The translations under genes and the position numbers were made by a program. From Acidimicrobiaceae bacterium (GTDB lineage Bacteria > Actinomycetota > Acidimicrobiia > Actinomarinales > Actinomarinaceae), in NCBI GenBank assembly GCA_028344675.1, contig JAOMBT010000003.1, positions 288-64,287 of the forward strand: DNA of 64,000 bases, in the 5' to 3' direction. Each line of letters begins with the position of its first letter. Position 1 is the stretch's first letter. The notes under the pieces were generated by a model. That model was given only the letters and a program-made list of their open reading frames with translations. It was not told the DNA's origin and searched no databases. This document shows positions 2,497-63,443 of this stretch, one piece after another.

Positions 2497-2733
2497 ATGG
2501 ATATCAAACTTGAATTTTGTGTAGTTTGAAACTACACCCCTCGTGCAGTTAGTACGATTGAAGATATTTTAGAAAAATATGGAAACACGGTTGAATCAAT
2601 TAATTTGATTCCAAGTGGTGGTGGAGTATTTGAATTTCAATTAAATGGAAAATTACTTTTTTCAAAAAAAGAATTAGGAAGACACTCTGAAGATGGAGAA
2701 ATTCTAAAGTTAATTGAAGAATCACTTAGTTGA
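2497..2733 (+). CDS. SelW/SelT/SelH (Rdx) family selenoprotein with a CxxU redox motif; in-frame UGA (Sec) at 2527..2529
   Basis: Absent from the ORF track because of the in-frame TGA. Manual translation: MDIKLEFCVV-U-NYTPRAVSTIEDILEKYGNTVESINLIPSGGGVFEFQLNGKLLFSKKELGRHSEDGEILKLIEESLS. This matches the Rdx-fold pattern: CxxU near the N-terminus, P-x-GGG-x-FE, and S-K-x3-GR-x-P/S-E. Confidence 0.85.
2519..2537 (+). promoter_or_regulatory. Perfect 8-bp hairpin GTGTAGTT-TGA-AACTACAC with the Sec UGA codon in the loop (candidate recoding/SECIS-related structure)
   Basis: The inverted repeat was read directly. An alternative overlapping downstream hairpin (ACTACAC...GTG...TAGT, about 2531..2553) is also possible. 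Confidence 0.5.
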
Positions 2734-32115: not shown

Positions 32116-32934
32116 GTGTATTTAATTAATAGTGTTCAAGTAGAAAAAAAAGATTTTATTATTCCTGTAGAAAACATGGGAGTTTGGAGAGGCGATGGGG
32201 TGTTTGAAGCTATTAAAATTCACAATGGATATCCATTTGCAATAGACCATCATATTGAAAGACTTTCAAAGTCTTGCTTAAAGGTATTTTTTGAAAATAT
32301 TGATTATAAAAAAATAAAAGAAGATATAATTTTTATCGCTAATAAGTATAAAGATGGTTATGTTCGTACATTAATTTTACGAAGTGAACAAAGTAGTCAT
32401 GATATATTTTGTTTTTATCAACCACCAATCTCAATTTCACATAAATTTTCATTACAAACACAAAAAGCCTTTTGGCAAAGTGGCGGAGACTATGATTTAA
32501 AATCAACATTTAATATCGGAACAAAATCAACTTCGTATGGAATGAATATAAGTCATACAAGGGCAGCAGAGCATGATGGCTTTACAGATGCACTTCTTGT
32601 GAACAAAGATGAAATTATTTTAGAAGGTCCTACATTTACGTTTGGCTGGATTAAGAATGATAAAATATATGTTCCAGATTTGAAACTTGGAATCCTAGAC
32701 TCAATCACAAGGCAGTATCTAATTAAATTTGGAGTTGAAAAAAAACTTACAGTTTTGGAAGATAGAATTAAAACAAGTGATTTGGATAAAATTGATGCTT
32801 GTTTTGTTTTATCAACTGCAAAACACGCAGTTCCTGTATTTAAAATAAATGATATTGAATACCCAGACCATAATTTAATTACAGAAATTCAGAATACTTT
32901 TACTGAGCAAATAAGGACAGAACGTACAAATTAA
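32116..32934 (+). CDS. Class IV (fold type IV) aminotransferase family protein (IlvE/PabC-like)
   Basis: 272 aa with N-terminal GDGVFEAIKI and overall class IV aminotransferase organisation. GTG start 2 nt after the nadE stop. Confidence 0.65.
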   Translation: MYLINSVQVEKKDFIIPVENMGVWRGDGVFEAIKIHNGYPFAIDHHIERLSKSCLKVFFENIDYKKIKEDIIFIANKYKDGYVRTLILRSEQSSHDIFCFYQPPISISHKFSLQTQKAFWQSGGDYDLKSTFNIGTKSTSYGMNISHTRAAEHDGFTDALLVNKDEIILEGPTFTFGWIKNDKIYVPDLKLGILDSITRQYLIKFGVEKKLTVLEDRIKTSDLDKIDACFVLSTAKHAVPVFKINDIEYPDHNLITEIQNTFTEQIRTERTN

Positions 32935-32945
32935 AAGGAGGTTAT

Positions 32946-33983
32946 ATGAGACTTACAGAGTATTCTCATGGTGCTGGTTGAGCATGTAAACTTTCTCAGA
33001 AAGAACTTGCTCAGGTACTGAAGCACTTTAAACAACAAAATAAATCAGACTCTCATAAAATACTTGTTGGTCTTGACACTCCTGATGATGGAGGGGTAAT
33101 TGAATTACAAAGTGGTGTTAAAATTATACAGACCGTTGATTTCTTTACACCCATATTAGATAATCCTTTTGATTGGGGAAGGGTCGCGGCAGCAAATGCC
33201 CTATCTGATATATATGCAATGGGAGGTAAACCATTATCAGCTTTACAGCTTGTTTCATGGCCAAGAGAAGACTTATCATTTGAGATACTTTCAGAAGTAC
33301 TAAATGGTGGTTTGCAAATAATGAATCAAGCCGGCTGTACTATTATTGGCGGACACAGCATAGATGACAAAGAACCCAAATATGGTTTTGCAGTTACTGG
33401 AATCATCGAAGATAATATTTACAGAAAGACAAATATAAAAGAAGGTGATAGCTTATATTTAACTAAACCTCTTGGATCAGGAATTATCTCATCAGCAATT
33501 AAAAAGAATATCGCAAGCAAAGATTGCATTAAAGAAGTAACGGATTTAATGACAACTCTGAATGACAAAGCTCTTCAGTTAGCATCTGAAATGAACGCTA
33601 ATGCAATTACGGATGTTACTGGTTTTGGTTTACTGGGGCATTTGATTGAAATGGTTGGTGAAAATGACTTGTCTGTTAACCTATTTTCAAATAAAATACC
33701 GTTTCTTGAATATGCAGAAAAATATCTAGAACAGGGGATTTATCCTTCTGGAAGCACTAGAAACTTAGAGTCTATTAGAGAACATATACATTTTGATAAA
33801 AGTGACGAATCAATAGTAAACCTAATGGCAGATGCACAAACCAGTGGAGGTTTACTGTTTTCATCTCCGAAAAAAACTTCTGAAAATATTGACTCTATTT
33901 GTCAAAAAATAGGAATTGAAATATGGGAAATAGGAAATATTGTTTCGAAATATAAAAATAAAGTCAATATTATTAAGTCTTAA
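32946..33983 (+). CDS. selD: Selenide, water dikinase (selenophosphate synthetase) SelD, selenocysteine-containing; in-frame UGA at 32979..32981
   Basis: The ORF track lists only 33219..33983. The same frame is open from the ATG at 32946 apart from one TGA. It translates to MRLTEYSHGAG-U-ACKLSQKELAQVLKHF...VGLDTPDDGGVIEL...QTVDFFTPILDNPFDWGRVAAANALSDIYAMGGKP. This matches the SelD N-terminus, with U at the catalytic Cys (E. coli GAGCGCK). Confidence 0.9.
32979..33013 (+). promoter_or_regulatory. Candidate SECIS-type hairpin starting at the selD UGA
   Basis: Outer stem TGAGCA (32979-32984) pairs with TGCTCA (33008-33013). Inner stem CTTTC (32991-32995) pairs with GAAAG (32999-33003). The UGA codon itself is base-paired at the foot of the structure. 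Confidence 0.5.
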
Positions 33984-34906
33984 TGATAAAAACAATCACA
34001 AAAATATTTGCATTTGTAACAATACTTAAAAATTTGCTTGAAACCAAGAAGGGTGATATCACAGGAACTACTCAAATTCATCCCAGTAAGTATCCAGGTA
34101 GAACAGTCTTTGTACGAGAAAAAGAATATTTCATAAGAGAGTCCTATATTGATGGCACACATCCAGTAGTTTTTCTACACAGCTGGGGTACTGATTCTTT
34201 GGGAAGTTGGTTTAAAGTTTTACCACAGATCAAAGGAAAAAAGTCTTTTATTGCTATTGATTTAAGAAACCATGGAAAATCTGATTCGAGTTGGAAAAGA
34301 TGGGATGTGGATGAAAATGCAGATATCGTGATAAGTATTTTAAAGCAATTAAATATTGAGTCATGTGATTTAATTGGGTGGTCTATGGGAAGTGCTGTGG
34401 GTATGTCTATTGCAAAAAAACAAAAAAATTTATTAAGAAAACTTATTCTTATTACTCCATTTAGTTGGCTTGGTGGAGCTGTTTACAACGAAAAAGTTGC
34501 ATTTAAAATTTTTGTCAGTTTTGTAAGAATTAGGGAAAGATTATTTCCAAATTTTAACCCACAGTCAAAGTATTCATTTCTTAAAAAATCAAATTCCATT
34601 GAAGATGAATATACAGAATGGGCATGGAACAACCTACATAAATCAAAAGATGATTTTATCTATGCAGACGGAGGAAGGTTTGTTGTTCCATATGATGCAA
34701 GGCCATGGATTAATCAAATTGAATGTCCAACACTTGTAATTACGGGTGGAAAGGATAAATTAGTTCCTGAAGAGACATCTAATGAAGTAATCAAAAATTT
34801 GATAAACGTAGAATCTAAAGTCATTGCAGATGCTGGACACTCAATCCCATGGACCCACTCTGATGAACTGATGAAAGAAGTAAATAACTTTCTAGATAAT
34901 GAATAA
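33983..34906 (+). CDS. Alpha/beta hydrolase fold protein
   Basis: 307 aa with the nucleophile elbow GWSMG and a C-terminal His motif (DAGHSIPW). Its ATG overlaps the selD stop (TAATG). Confidence 0.75.
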   Translation: MIKTITKIFAFVTILKNLLETKKGDITGTTQIHPSKYPGRTVFVREKEYFIRESYIDGTHPVVFLHSWGTDSLGSWFKVLPQIKGKKSFIAIDLRNHGKSDSSWKRWDVDENADIVISILKQLNIESCDLIGWSMGSAVGMSIAKKQKNLLRKLILITPFSWLGGAVYNEKVAFKIFVSFVRIRERLFPNFNPQSKYSFLKKSNSIEDEYTEWAWNNLHKSKDDFIYADGGRFVVPYDARPWINQIECPTLVITGGKDKLVPEETSNEVIKNLINVESKVIADAGHSIPWTHSDELMKEVNNFLDNE

Positions 34907-36029
34907 AGTACTTTTTGTCGCACCTACAAAATATAATTACCCAATTAAGGAAGATCTAAAAAGTAAATTTGTAATATTGTCAGAGATTTGCAAACCATTT
35001 GTATTTGCATTTAGTAATAAGAAAAAAACAACTGCAGTCGGAAATACAAATTTAATTCTTTATAAAAAATTAAATAGTAGATTTTTAAATTATCTCAAAA
35101 TAATTTATCTTTTTGGATTTATTGTACCTAAAAAAATAAAACAGAACCAGATTGATATTATTTGCCTTCAAGATCCTGTCACAAGTTATTTTGCTATAAA
35201 ATCTTTAAAACTAAGGAACTCTAAAGTAAAAATTGTACTTGAGACTCATGGAGATTTTATTGAAACGATTGCACTTGAAAAAGAACTGCTAATTCCAAGC
35301 ATCTATAAAAAATTATTTAAATTTTTTGCATCTTACTCTATTAAAAATGCTGACCTCATTAGAACTATCTCTTCATTTACTGAAGAACAAGTCAAAGTTT
35401 ATGGATATAAAGACAACTTTGTTAGATTTCCTGCGTGGATAAATCTTTCTAAGTTTTTAGAAGCAAAAACTATTAGAGATAAACATGACGATTTTAAGAT
35501 AATATTTGTTGGTAGCGTTACAGACAGAAAAAACCCTGACTTAATTGTTAAGGCAATTAGTGAATTAGATGATGAAATATCTTTAGAAATAATAGGCCCA
35601 ACTCCTAACAAGACTTACCTTAATGAATTAAAAAAATCTATATCTAATTCTCAACATAAAAAAAATATCTTGTTGACCCCCTTCATTGCTATTGATGAAC
35701 TTATAGAAAAATACTCAAATGCAGATCTATTTATATTGCCATCAAAATCAGAGGGCTTGGGTCGAGTAGTTATCGAAGCTCAAGCAACAGGATGTCCAGT
35801 CTTAGTTTCTAGTAATACAGGAGCAGTGGATTTAATCATTGATCATGAAACAGGTTATATTTTTGAAAATGATAACTTAGAGGATTTAAAAGACAAAATT
35901 AAAAATATAATTGATAATCAGCAGCACTCAGTTCAAGTCGGTTTAAATGGAAAAAGTTTTGTAACTCAAAACCATACAATTGAAAATTTTAAATTTGGAT
36001 ATAAGAAGCTATTTGATTTAGTTAACTAA
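34899..36029 (+). CDS. Glycosyltransferase, GT4 (GT-B fold) family
   Basis: 376 aa with the C-terminal E-x7-E region SEGLGRVVIEAQATGCPV. It overlaps the hydrolase gene by 8 nt. Confidence 0.8.
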   Translation: MNKVLFVAPTKYNYPIKEDLKSKFVILSEICKPFVFAFSNKKKTTAVGNTNLILYKKLNSRFLNYLKIIYLFGFIVPKKIKQNQIDIICLQDPVTSYFAIKSLKLRNSKVKIVLETHGDFIETIALEKELLIPSIYKKLFKFFASYSIKNADLIRTISSFTEEQVKVYGYKDNFVRFPAWINLSKFLEAKTIRDKHDDFKIIFVGSVTDRKNPDLIVKAISELDDEISLEIIGPTPNKTYLNELKKSISNSQHKKNILLTPFIAIDELIEKYSNADLFILPSKSEGLGRVVIEAQATGCPVLVSSNTGAVDLIIDHETGYIFENDNLEDLKDKIKNIIDNQQHSVQVGLNGKSFVTQNHTIENFKFGYKKLFDLVN

Positions 36030-53634: not shown

Positions 53635-56144
53635 TTATTCAAATCTAGTCATTTTTAATGAATTAATAATTAAATTTTTAAATTTAATATTTGCTTTTAA
53701 GCGTTCAATTTTTTGTTTTGTAACTTTTTCAGCTGATGGAAGAGGATTTAACTCCACAAACTTCTCTATATCATTTCCAAGTAATTCGTTATAAATTGAC
53801 GGAAGACCATCAAGTATCCTTGAGGATGTCCATTCAGGCATAACTTTTAACAGGTCGTCCCAGTTCTCTTTTACAATCATCCAAGCAGCCTCTCCATTTT
53901 CTGTGTGGGAAATTAACCCAGAAATAATATATGGTGCATCTGCTCCTCTAATAGTGCCTTCTAAAATGGCATTTAAAACAGTTTTTGGAGTCTTTGGGTC
54001 ACTTAATCCCCATAACATTGACCTATATCTTCCTTCAATTTGTGGAGTCTCTGCTTCTATGAATTTATCAAGATATTTTGTAACAGACACTGATTGATCC
54101 ATTCCAGCTATTGAAAGGACAAGATTGTAGTAATTTCCATCATCGTATTCTTCATATTTATTAGACTCAAATAAATCTACAAAATAATTATTAAATTCTT
54201 TATCACTTGAATATTTTGCATACAGGCCACATACTATTGATCTGAGTTGAGACTCTTCTTGGCTTGAATTTTCATTGTATTCTTTACCTAACACATCCAG
54301 GCTTGGTTCACAAAATTTTCCAATAAATAACCCTAAGTTTTTATCAGGAAAAATTTTATACATTGTTGAAAATATTCCCGAGACAAGGGCCCAAATATTT
54401 TTATCTTTTTCATGTTTATATAGAGCTAATAATTCCATGAAGTCATCAAAAGATATTTGGTCGATTCTTAATGACATCCAGGAGTCTTCTAAAAGTCGAT
54501 ATTTTTCATTTATGTCAAGCTCTTTGAAATGGGAAGATATCTCCTGTAGAAGTTCACTGCTATACGCAGTATGAAAAAAAGCCCACCCTCCATTGTTAAT
54601 GTAAGGAACACTTCCTTTACTTTCAAAATTTTCAGATACACTTTCAAGCAATAATTTACTCTCACGTTTTGTATCTAAATATTTAATATTTATTGGTATG
54701 TGCCAAAGTGAGTCATCAGTACTTCCATCAATCAAAAATTTTCTTTGAGATAATTTCAAAGAAGAATCTTGGATTTCTACCGACACAATTGGATACCCCT
54801 CTTGCTTAATCCATGTTGGAAGTATTTTATTTAATTCGTACTCCGAAGCTTCAGTTAACTCATTCCAAAGATCTGTTGAGTGTGTGTTCTTAAACTGATA
54901 TTTTTTTAAATAATTCCTGACTCCAGATTTAAAATTATCTTCTCCAATAAACGTTTCAAACATCCTCAAAACAGTTGAGCCCTTTTGATAGGTTAAAACA
55001 TCAAACATCTCTTCAGCTTCTTCTGGTGTTGCTACTTCAAATTCAACAGGCCTAGATGATTTCAGTGAGTCTACATTAAAGCCTTGACTTCTTGCCAAAT
55101 TTAATTCATTCCATAACTTGAATTCTGGATATGTAGCTTCAGATGCTATGACTTCCATTAAACTTGCAAATGCTTCATTAAGCCAAATCCCATCCCACCA
55201 TTTCATTGTTACTAAATCACCAAACCACATATGTGCTAGTTCATGTGCAACTACCTCTACAGATCTTGAAAGCTCTGCTCTTGTAGCTTTTTCTACGTCA
55301 ATCAAGAGAAGGGTCTCTCGGAATGTAACTGCACCCACATTTTCCATAGCACCCATTGCAAAATCAGGAATTGCTATCAAGTCAAGTTTTGAACCAGGGT
55401 ATTTTATATCATAATAGTTTTCAAAAAAATCCAAAATTTTTATTGCAGCTTCTCCGGCAAATTTGGTTTGGTGACTGAATCCCGGTCTATGCACAACTCT
55501 GACATTAGTTGATCTAGATTTTCCAATTTCCGTAATCTCAAGAGGTCCTACAATAAAAGCTACTAAATAAGTGGACATTCGCATTGAATCAACAAACTTC
55601 GTAGTAGCTCTACCGTCTTTATTTGATTGACTTAACACAGCCTCATTACTAATTCTTATATCGCTTTCATTTGAAGTTAACGTAATAGAAAATACTGATT
55701 TAAATTCAGGTTCATCCCAACAAGGAAAGCCATTCTTGCAGCAGTTGGTTCAAACTGTGTTGTTGCAATCGACTTTTCTTCATCATTTTTGTCTATAAAC
55801 TTACTTCTATAAAAACCTCTTAAGTCATCAACAACATTTCCAGTAAAATCTATGTACAACTTCCAGTCGCCAGTCTCTATGCTATCTTCAAAGTTAAGAA
55901 GAATTTTCTCATCATCTTTGAGATAGTTTACTGATCCATCAATATGTGCTCCGTTGTCATTTTCAACAAAGCAGCTATTTACTGTTAACCCTACTGAATT
56001 AAGTTGTAATTCTGTTGTGTCCTCAACAACTTCAATAAAGATGGTTTCTGAACCATTGTATGTAAAATTTTCAAGGTCAATATCTAAATGGATTTCATAC
56101 CTATTTGGAATTGCTAATTTTGGAAGTAATATATTTTGATTCAT
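53635..56144 (-). pseudogene. pepN: Aminopeptidase N (M1 family) interrupted by a 1-nt frameshift near 55724-55725
   Basis: Two ORFs (55677..56144 and 53635..55638) sit in different frames. The N-terminal ORF ends ...TQFEPTAARMAF then goes out of frame. Shifting by one base restores PCWDEPEFKSVFSITL..., continuing into the second ORF, which carries GAMEN and HELAHMWFGD...WLNEAFA. Confidence 0.85.
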
Positions 56145-59180: not shown

Positions 59181-59215
59181 TTTCTTATAATAAACATAAA
59201 AAAACTATAAATTAG

Positions 59216-59307
59216 CGGAGGTGGACAGGAATCGAACCCGCCAAAGACTTTTACACCTTTCAACAGTTTTGAAGACTGTGGAGCCCACCAGGCGCTCATT
59301 CACCTCC
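59216..59307 (-). tRNA. selC: tRNA-Sec (anticodon UCA), selC; no encoded CCA
   Basis: Reverse strand: GGAGGTGA-AT-GAGCGCC-TGGT-GGGCTC-C-ACAGT-CTTCAAA-ACTGT-[21-nt variable arm]-GCGGG-TTCGATT-CCTGT-CCACCTCC-G. The anticodon loop CTTCAAA matches my recollection of the E. coli selC loop. There are 13 nt between the T-loop and the discriminator (8+5 design). The D stem is long with a 4-nt loop. Total length is 92 nt. Confidence 0.85.
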
Positions 59308-62006: not shown

Positions 62007-63443
62007 ATGTTCGAATATCTCGATATCGCAATAGATTCAGCTATTGAAAGTGGTGCAAAATACTCTGACGCGCGAGTATTGATTTCAAAATCCAGAAGCA
62101 TTGCAGCAAAAAATGGAGAAATTGAAAACTTTAATGAAAATGAAAAAATAGGGATTGGAATTAGAGCATTAGTTGGTTCATCCTGGGGTTTTTATTCAAC
62201 TTATAACTTATCAAATGAATCATTAAAGCTTGCTGGTAAGAAATCGTACGAAATTGCTAAAGCATCAGCTATAGTTTCTGGTAAAGATATGCCTTTTGCT
62301 GATGTGCCTGTAATTCAAGATAGCTACACCACACCTCATAATGAAAATCCTTTTTCTGTGTCAAGTTCTGACCAAATCAATTTATTAATTGAATCTACTG
62401 AAAAAATGAAAAAGCTAGGTAGTTCGCGTGCGTTTGGAAGACTTGATTTTTGGGATACAGAAAAGTGGTTTGCATCAAGTCAGGGTCATAAAATTTATCA
62501 AAACATAATTGAATCAGGTGGTGGGATTTCTTCTCTATCAGTTGGTGATGGAGAAACTCAAATTAGATCTTATCCACAATCTTTTGGTGAATACAGAACT
62601 GGGGGTTGGGAGGTAGTAAAAAGTTTTGAATTCGAAAATCATATAGAAAGATTGGCTGAAGAGTCTCAAAGATTATTGGTTGCTCCACAATGTCCAGAAG
62701 GAACAATGGATTTAATTTTAGAAGGAAGTCAACTAGCTCTTCAAATACACGAGTCAGTTGGACATGCAATTGAACTCGATAGAATTTTAGGCTGGGAAGC
62801 TGCATATGCTGGGACTTCTCATTTAGAGTTAGAAAAATTAAATAAACACAGATATGGTTCTGATTTAATGAACATTGTTGCAGATGCAACTCTTCCAGGA
62901 GCATTAGCGACATTTAAGTATGATGATGAGGGAACCCCAGCTCAACGAGTAGACATTGTTAAAGAAGGAATATGGACTGGAGTGCTTTCAGGACGTGACA
63001 GTGCAGCTGTTGCAGGTGTAGATCCCGGAGGTATGGTTCGTGCAGATGGTTTTGGAAGATTACCAATGGTAAGAATGACAAACGTAGGACTACTTCCAGG
63101 AGATTCATCATTAGAAGAAATTATACAGGCAACTGATAATGGTATATATATGGAAACCAACCGATCTTGGTCTATTGATGACATAAGATTAAATTTTCAA
63201 TTTGGTTGTGAGGCTGGCTGGTTAGTAAAAAATGGAAAAATTATAGATATGGTAAAAAACCCAACATATACCGGAATTACTCCTGAATTTTGGGGAAATA
63301 TGGACATGCTATCAGGAGAAGATGAGTGGGTTTTTTGGGGAACTCCAAACTGTGGCAAAGGTCAGCCAAGCCAGATAGGACATACCGGACATCCTGCATC
63401 ACCCGCTAGATTTAAAAATACACGAATTGGAGTACGAGGATGA
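62007..63443 (+). CDS. tldD: TldD family metalloprotease
   Basis: 478 aa with the HExxxH motif (IHESVGHAIE) and a TldD-like C-terminal beta-rich region. Confidence 0.8.
   Translation: MFEYLDIAIDSAIESGAKYSDARVLISKSRSIAAKNGEIENFNENEKIGIGIRALVGSSWGFYSTYNLSNESLKLAGKKSYEIAKASAIVSGKDMPFADVPVIQDSYTTPHNENPFSVSSSDQINLLIESTEKMKKLGSSRAFGRLDFWDTEKWFASSQGHKIYQNIIESGGGISSLSVGDGETQIRSYPQSFGEYRTGGWEVVKSFEFENHIERLAEESQRLLVAPQCPEGTMDLILEGSQLALQIHESVGHAIELDRILGWEAAYAGTSHLELEKLNKHRYGSDLMNIVADATLPGALATFKYDDEGTPAQRVDIVKEGIWTGVLSGRDSAAVAGVDPGGMVRADGFGRLPMVRMTNVGLLPGDSSLEEIIQATDNGIYMETNRSWSIDDIRLNFQFGCEAGWLVKNGKIIDMVKNPTYTGITPEFWGNMDMLSGEDEWVFWGTPNCGKGQPSQIGHTGHPASPARFKNTRIGVRG

Follow-up and report, generated by a model that had tools for sequence, protein, structure and literature searches.

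The question raised by this locus is whether an in-frame TGA interrupts a gene or encodes its catalytic residue. In the window, as the whole 64,000-nucleotide stretch of DNA is called here, a stop-to-stop list of open reading frames contains only a 254-aa piece of a selenide, water dikinase (SelD). The earlier note, made from the sequence alone, had claimed that the frame stays open back to an ATG at 32946 apart from one TGA, and these coordinates proved right: the frame runs from ATG 32946 to TAA 33981-33983 with a single in-frame TGA at 32979-32981. The conceptual N-terminus reads MRLTEYSHGAG, then the TGA, then ACKLSQKEL. The features of the gene are the following.

32946 to 33983, plus strand: selD (selenide, water dikinase), full-length, 345 codons including one selenocysteine (Sec) codon.
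32935 to 32942, plus strand: Shine-Dalgarno sequence of selD, AAAGGAGG, read directly, 4 nt 5' of ATG 32946.
32979 to 32981, plus strand: predicted Sec codon UGA, codon 12 of selD, aligned with Cys17 of E. coli SelD in HGAGCGCK.
33219 to 33983, plus strand: the C-terminal 254-aa reading frame of the stop-to-stop list, a part of selD and not a separate gene.

The ATG at 32946 is a credible start because the Shine-Dalgarno sequence lies 4 nt upstream of it and the preceding gene, which encodes a class IV aminotransferase, ends at 32934. For the profile searches, selD was translated with Cys in place of the in-frame stop. The comparison with the SelD family that the earlier note had proposed gave an end-to-end match of the 345-aa protein: TIGR00476 gave 375.2 bits against a cut-off of 125, its positions 1-309 aligning with residues 2-310, and NF002098 scored 355 bits (cut-off 299). 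The AIRS domain (PF00586) covers residues 47-154 and the AIRS_C domain (PF02769) residues 165-340 of the full protein. Both the catalytic loop and about half or more of the AIRS N-terminal domain are missing from the 254-aa fragment.

Residues 1-334 match E. coli SelD (3u0o) with E = 2.4e-79, and this alignment places HGAG-U-ACK over HGAGCGCK, which puts residue 12 on Cys17 and K15 on Lys20. The claim that the UGA falls on the catalytic Cys of the SelD loop is thereby supported. The E. coli enzyme shares the catalytic loop but carries Cys (TGC) instead of Sec, which makes a recoding signal unnecessary there. The Aquifex chain 2yye was also deposited with Cys at the position of the selD UGA. 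The stretch from 32946 to 33983 is one gene, the selD of Candidatus Actinomarina, and the formation of selenophosphate from selenide and ATP is its predicted activity by family membership. Its catalytic residue 12 is very probably Sec, decoded by the Sec machinery; this degree of confidence covers the main claim and not the hairpin mechanism considered below.

Relatives of the gene carry the same codon. A search with one genome per species returned 11 selD loci (L001-L011), all from Candidatus Actinomarina / OCS155 and with 70-91% protein identity. In each of them codon 12 is TGA, the gene begins with ATG or GTG, and the ribosome-binding site is identical. The N-terminal 90 residues, whose absence from orthologs would have spoken against the earlier note, are not missing: start, first codons and TGA were found in the 11 loci. 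With two more loci added (L001-L013; 70-97% protein identity), the TGA at codon 12 and the Shine-Dalgarno sequence are both kept in 13 of 13 further Actinomarina genes, which brings the Actinomarina selD genes read as DNA to 14 of 14 with TGA, this window included. The 11 codons 5' of the UGA show no amino-acid change across the L001-L011 genomes, and with a value of 0.30 they vary synonymously about as much as the whole gene (0.34; 14 Actinomarina genes). Since the amino acids do not change while synonymous variation stays near the gene-wide value, these 11 codons are translated. In addition, a metagenome scan with the pattern Y-S-H-G-x-G-UGA-(A/G)-C-K yielded 120 selD loci carrying the TGA, all genuine selD N-termini and from very diverse lineages.

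These data bear on the possibility that selD is broken, either as a pseudogene or through a sequencing error in a TGT or TGC codon, so that only the 254-aa fragment or nothing would be made. Assembly errors or decay do occur in this DNA, because the nearby aminopeptidase N gene is split by a frameshift in the window. Nevertheless, the identical TGA is present in independent single-cell, MAG and metagenome assemblies, the 11 upstream codons and the Shine-Dalgarno sequence are conserved by purifying selection, and the fragment would be deprived of the catalytic loop together with half of the AIRS N-terminal domain. A broken gene is therefore very improbable.

The decoding of UGA as Sec also requires its own machinery, and two further features of the window are related to it.

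59215 to 59307, minus strand: tRNA-Sec (selC), anticodon UCA, found by ARAGORN and by Rfam RF01852 (73.6 bits, gathering threshold 47; E = 3.4e-13).
2497 to 2733, plus strand: putative second selenoprotein, of the SelW/SelT/SelH family, 78 aa, CVVU motif, Sec-UGA at 2527-2529 and stop TGA at 2731-2733.

Neither of these two genes had been mentioned in the earlier note. At gathering thresholds, the Rfam scan of the window detected nothing besides the tRNA-Sec. The reading frames adjoining the tRNA gene encode HflX, 6-phosphogluconate dehydrogenase, an HTH protein and CtaA. The 78-aa protein scored 54.7 bits with TIGR02174 (SelT/SelW/SelH; cut-off 34.2) and 83.5 bits with NF041051, which is below the cut-off of 88. 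Its gene presents a hairpin, UCGUGC-AGUUA-GUACGA, at 2541-2557, which starts 11 nt 3' of the UGA. No selA or selB was found with Pfam and NCBIfam among those reading frames of the 64-kb window that reach about 340 aa, and the presence of both genes consequently rests on the preprint 'Actinomarina, resolved' (bioRxiv 10.64898/2026.04.03.716425, April 2026). According to it, selC, selA and selD occur in 84 of 84 complete Actinomarina genomes, each of which also has a divergent selB, and YbbB is lacking. Concerning the neighbours of selD, a role in selenoneine or selenouridine synthesis was considered and rejected: the downstream GT4 glycosyltransferase scored only 43.7 bits against SenB (cut-off 300) and the gene after it encodes a generic alpha/beta hydrolase.

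TGA also works as a stop codon in this genome. It terminates 8 of the 32 long reading frames of the window, including the one that ends at 63441-63443, and the TGA at 2731-2733 is the stop of a gene with its own Sec-UGA at 2527. The statement that TGA is used here both as a stop and as a Sec codon agrees with these data. Among the best 120 database homologues of SelD (71-97% identity), 119 are N-terminally complete and all of these are written with 'W' at residue 12, while none of the 120 has Cys there despite the Cys in the query. These entries come from short contigs of 1-5 kb, and the DNA of two of them (L012 and L013) has TGA at this codon; the 'W' is hence a product of gene callers that choose genetic code 4 on short contigs. 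Reading the TGA as tryptophan under code 4, which the 119 'W' entries would favour, is scarcely credible, given that TGA ends a quarter of the long reading frames (8/32), that the anticodon-UCA tRNA of the window is a tRNA-Sec by two methods, that residue 12 is the catalytic Cys/Sec position of SelD, and that the 'W' calls derive from contigs on which a metagenome gene caller can switch code. For practical purposes, sequencing error, pseudogene and Trp decoding of the selD TGA are excluded.

As Rfam models gave no SECIS for this region, the hairpins 3' of the codon were analysed directly as candidates for the recoding signal. Positions are numbered with the U of the selD UGA as nt 1, and the predicted structures are listed below.

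32979 to 33013, plus strand: first hairpin (hp1), composite, with a lower stem of nt 1-6 and 30-35 (UGAGCA/UGCUCA).
32991 to 33003, plus strand: upper stem of hp1 (CUUUC/GAAAG), nt 13-17 with 21-25, loop UCA, as predicted by folding.
33008 to 33025, plus strand: second hairpin (hp2), U GCUCAG-GUA-CUG(A)AGC A, nt 30-47, a 7-bp stem with one bulge.

The hairpin described in the earlier note, of roughly 35 nt and with the UGA paired at its foot, corresponds to hp1 and is the minimum-free-energy fold. Its energy is -11.7 kcal/mol when 52 nt are folded and -12.3 kcal/mol for 41 nt (z = -2.55 relative to shuffles that keep the dinucleotides). Since a coding sequence can create complementarity by itself, the folds were compared with sequences in which the protein was kept fixed and the synonymous codons were resampled according to the codon usage of the window. 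Under this null, the fold of nt 1-48 (-11.7 kcal/mol) is more stable than 97% of the resampled sequences (-6.4 +/- 2.6; P = 0.027). An extended outer pairing around hp1 (GGUGCU/AGCACU, in a 71-nt fold) was discarded, as judged by eye, because it is broken in clade 3 of Actinomarina (L012).

The second hairpin was absent from the earlier description. Its loop, GUA (or GGUAC if taken as 5 nt), has its G-U 33 nt 3' of the UGA, and this GU is also the start of a conserved Val codon. Its stability is -2.9 kcal/mol alone (16 nt) and -5.2 kcal/mol in context; this weakness is set in an AT-rich genome. As hp2 shares GCUCA with the lower stem of hp1, the two hairpins are mutually exclusive in full. When nt 1-12 were held single-stranded, which mimics a ribosome with the UGA in the A site, the upper hairpin and hp2 folded together at -7.2 kcal/mol, against -2.5 +/- 1.9 kcal/mol for resampled sequences (P = 0.007; beating 99.3% of them).

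The comparative analysis was based on 96 distinct sequences of the U-A-C-K type from the metagenome pattern scan, aligned without gaps. About 74-76% of the cells are paired in both structures (whole hp1, or upper hp1 with hp2), versus 19-38% with slid partners. For 80 Sec-selD genes, synonymous codons were resampled in each gene by its own codon usage, and the resulting z-scores overstate significance because the sequences are phylogenetically related. With this reservation, the lower stem of hp1 is paired in 68.1% versus 67.3% resampled (z = 0.8), the upper-stem position in 79.7% versus 64.0% (z = 11.7) and hp2 in 74.2% versus 57.7% (z = 11.1). The complementarity of the outer stem, in which the UGA is paired, is thus a by-product of the peptide U-A...A-Q, since it equals that of the resampled sequences. 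Of the hairpin in the earlier note, then, the fold itself and the inner CTTTC/GAAAG position were upheld, the latter as a selected element, and the outer TGAGCA/TGCTCA stem showed no selection. The upper hp1 position and hp2 both appear to be selected as RNA beyond coding needs, and their contrast with the lower stem is clear despite the inflated z-scores.

Further evidence comes from the substitutions. The upper stem-loop occupies nt 13-25 here, and nt 11-29 in the majority of lineages. In clade 1 (this window, L001-L003 and L013) four synonymous changes have moved the upper stem by 2 nt while 5 bp are kept, which argues for selection on a hairpin at this place. In hp2, five of the six pairs present changes on both sides in the 96-sequence alignment. 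The pair nt 33-43 is GC in 44 sequences, UA in 13 and CG in 6, and the pair nt 36-40 is GC in 56, GU in 16 and AU in 4, the AU cases including CAA/TTG in marine sequences of low GC with a SelD N-terminus similar to that of Actinomarina. The codons of hp2 are also unusual in their constancy: CTG, the rarest Leu codon (3.9% of Leu), and CAG (25.6% of Gln codons) are invariant in the 14 Actinomarina selD genes. Hence the covariation that the earlier note had proposed to look for in related genomes has a mixed answer, with selection at the upper hp1 position, compensatory changes in hp2, and no selection in the lower stem of hp1.

A synonymous-site profile of the 14 Actinomarina genes was also considered and was set aside as evidence for the hairpins. 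It has a dip at selD codons 21-32 (0.07 versus 0.34 gene-wide), but an equally deep dip appears at the Lys/Asn-rich C-terminus. AT-biased two-fold codons confound such a profile, and it was therefore replaced by the resampling of synonymous codons.

Known models describe this signal only in part. A scan with a SECIS model had been suggested for the region near the UGA, and it gave no support: none of the Rfam SECIS families matched 32900-33120 even at E <= 10, where only chance miRNA and snoRNA matches appeared. In the preprint, Rfam models likewise gave no SECIS for Actinomarina (10.64898/2026.04.03.716425). The bacterial consensus SECIS of bSECISearch has an apical loop of 3-9 nt on an upper stem of 4-16 bp, a G among the first two loop nucleotides, mostly with G or U after it, a distance of 16-37 nt between UGA and apical loop, and a minimum free energy of -7.5 kcal/mol or lower (PMC13188914, Fig. 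2). Both hairpins lie within the size ranges (loop of 3 nt and upper stem of 5 bp in hp1; loop of 3 or 5 nt and stem of 7 bp in hp2). As for the loop G, the hp1 loops of the three Actinomarina clades (UCA, CACAAAA and CAA) have none, while the hp2 loops GUA and GUU comply. The spacing is 14 nt here and 13-15 nt across the clades for hp1, outside the range, and 33 nt for hp2, within it. The energy limit is reached by composite hp1 (-10.9 to -11.7 kcal/mol) and not by hp2 with the values given above. Consequently, hp1 fails two of the four consensus rules, by its loop without G and its short distance from the UGA. The signal resembles the consensus SECIS in being a stem-loop directly 3' of the UGA and within the coding sequence, and in the 3-5 nt loop of hp2 with G then U, but neither hairpin satisfies all four rules.

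How these elements could work may be outlined from the standard bacterial pathway. SelA would convert Ser-tRNA-Sec using selenophosphate, and as this compound is the product of SelD, the enzyme would be needed for its own synthesis. SelB would then bring the charged tRNA to the selD UGA by virtue of its binding to a hairpin that closely follows in the mRNA. The signal for recoding, within about 50 nt 3' of the UGA, would consist of two hairpin positions, both under RNA-level selection. In free mRNA the 35-nt composite hairpin would form. A ribosome with the UGA in the A site would have to melt nt 1-12, and this would free GCUCA for hp2, whose (G)GUA(C) loop would be the contact for SelB, with the upper stem-loop of hp1 remaining as a folded spacer between the ribosome and hp2. 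We tentatively prefer this model for the present genome, at somewhat less than even confidence. The preference for hp2 as the SelB contact is due to the Actinomarina hp1 loop without G and its stem of mostly about -2 kcal/mol, compared with the GU loop of hp2, which resembles the AGUUA loop of the hairpin in the SelW-like gene of the same genome.

The main alternative, to which we give a slightly lower probability, is that the SelB-binding SECIS is hp1 alone, or its upper stem-loop (nt 13-25), and that hp2 is an accessory or a by-product of the conserved A-Q-V-L peptide. As the universal element, the first hairpin might also be the site of SelB here: one folds at this place in all 96 U-A-C-K-type sequences, with -3 kcal/mol or better in 87 of them, whereas hp2 is stable in 69. 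In the other 27 a strong first hairpin is the only element, in some cases with a canonical GGA loop. The enrichment of the upper position over synonymous resampling, the register shift of clade 1 with its 5 bp kept and the composite hairpin as the most stable fold are all consistent with this alternative. Moreover, the start of its stem lies 9-11 nt from the UGA, which is also the case for the SECIS stem of E. coli fdhF. Against it stand the loops without G in all three Actinomarina clades, the 13-15 nt from the UGA and the two consensus rules failed, to which it must be added that the upper stem by itself, in the majority of the Actinomarina genes, reaches no more than -1.9 to -2.0 kcal/mol. 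Furthermore, the compensatory changes of hp2 are its own and are not explained by conservation of the peptide. Even with hp2 as the preferred SelB contact in Actinomarina, the contact may be either hairpin depending on the lineage, since a strong first hairpin is present in the 27 sequences where hp2 is not stable.

A bolder extension of this model, and an unlikely one in our estimation, is that the selD signal of the U-A-C-K-L...E-L-A-Q-V-L group is a two-state, ribosome-driven RNA switch and not a static SECIS. The free mRNA would hide the UGA at the foot of a long hairpin, the ribosome would melt this foot, and the released GCUCA would refold into the GU-looped hp2, which would recruit or position SelB. 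The group itself is found in many soil and marine lineages, Actinomarina included. If true, such a ribosome-driven switch would account for the many predicted SECIS elements of bacteria that do not fit the single-hairpin consensus.

Regarding what was known before, Sec-containing SelD is the second most widespread prokaryotic selenoprotein family (PMC13188914); the earlier note had stated that such enzymes exist in other bacteria. The original description was for Haemophilus influenzae (Guimaraes et al. 1996, cited in 10.64898/2026.04.03.716425). The present protein belongs to the same family and shares with the bacterial Sec-SelD proteins the N-terminal loop ...YSHGAG-U-xCK..., with Sec at the position of E. 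coli Cys17; there as here the enzyme makes the selenium donor for its own synthesis. In the Pasteurellaceae-type selD genes of our sample, a single hairpin (CCUAA-GGUG-UUAGG) lies 20 nt after the UGA, whereas the present gene is of the U-A-C-K-L...E-L-A-Q-V-L type, which has two adjacent hairpin positions.

The finding that selD encodes a selenoprotein was already known for the genus, because the preprint had predicted it for Actinomarina (10.64898/2026.04.03.716425). The likeness is close: same genus and gene, the MRLT prefix, 342-346 aa and the same conclusion. There are also differences. The preprint gives the Sec form in about half of the genomes and presumes Cys elsewhere, while TGA was read here in 14 of 14 genes. 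Its 78-aa family was called uncharacterized, and the gene at 2497-2733, which we take to be this family by its length and the lack of a prior assignment, matches the SelW/SelT/SelH model. In addition, the hairpins 3' of the selD UGA were located and tested in the present work. Sec-containing selD as a phenomenon is textbook matter, and the modest new part is the two-hairpin anatomy of its recoding signal, which is common to many lineages.

For annotation, the consequence is direct. As the catalytic residue is encoded by a Sec UGA, selD is truncated or mistranslated by gene callers, and the standard ones give either the 254-aa fragment or Trp at the catalytic residue. Owing to these fragment or 'W' calls, pathway reconstructions can miss or misread selD in a very abundant marine bacterium. 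In metagenomes of the ocean surface, no selenoproteins were more widespread than SelW-like proteins and SelD (PMC2398784), and part of these may belong to Actinomarina. With genomes of only about 1.1 Mb (10.64898/2026.04.03.716425), this small-genome genus keeps the whole Sec system, in which the selenium-activating enzyme itself depends on Sec.

A second selenoprotein gene was found in the window near the start of the stretch. Its Sec-UGA lies at 2527, and its stop codon is a TGA at 2731. The features considered here are the following:

2497-2733, + strand: selenoprotein gene; product of 78 aa, SelW/SelT/SelH family, CVVU motif (TIGR02174, above cut-off)
2519-2557, + strand: two hairpins at the Sec-UGA of the SelW-like gene (fold prediction)
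33983-36029, + strand: alpha/beta hydrolase gene, then a GT4 glycosyltransferase gene, 3' of selD
53635-56144, - strand: aminopeptidase N (peptidase M1), split between ORF 55677-56144 and ORF 53635-55638, whose frames differ
59215-59307, - strand: tRNA-Sec gene with anticodon UCA (73.6 bits in Rfam)

The selenoprotein family that is most abundant in a preprint on Actinomarina genomes has 78 aa and is called uncharacterized there (bioRxiv 10.64898/2026.04.03.716425); the gene at 2497-2733 looks like a member of it. In the predicted fold, the Sec-UGA lies at the tip of an 8-bp hairpin, in its 3-nt apical loop (GUGUAGUU-UGA-AACUACAC), and a downstream hairpin of near-canonical, SECIS-like form, UCGUGC-AGUUA-GUACGA (-6.6 kcal/mol), starts 11 nt 3' of the UGA. 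The 63-nt region has a folding z of -3.6.

Concerning selD in other lineages, the type of downstream hairpin varies among the diverse metagenomic Sec-selD loci (L015, L016, L028, L029, L033, L043 and L108; L031, L047, L054 and others like them). One group presents a GGUCC-GGA-GGACC hairpin at nt 16-28 (U of UGA = nt 1) and lacks the second hairpin, and the Pasteurellaceae-type selD (U-G-C-K-I-S-P-K-V-L) carries a CCUAA-GGUG-UUAGG hairpin within a long AU-rich outer stem.

The stop and start codons of selD and the genes after it overlap, and the selD-hydrolase order is also present in another Actinomarina locus, L013 (single contig checked). The GT4 glycosyltransferase scored far below the threshold for the selenoneine enzyme SenB (43.7 bits versus 300).

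The tRNA-Sec gene and selD lie within one 64-kb window. The tRNA-Sec gene is flanked by a 109-aa ORF with no family match and, on the other side, by a 195-aa HTH protein weakly matching the phage repressor RstR. Elsewhere, since the aminopeptidase N ORFs are in different frames, a frameshift must lie near 55640-55680, in an A/T-rich stretch; it could be an assembly indel or reflect a real pseudogene.

Regarding public protein collections, Actinomarina-type SelD is full-length there, with Trp at the catalytic position in 119 of the 120 best homologues. This Trp is a TGA codon read by code 4 on short contigs (the DNA, read for two homologues, has TGA). It is a systematic mis-annotation, by which homology-based surveys of selenoproteins or genetic codes could be misled.
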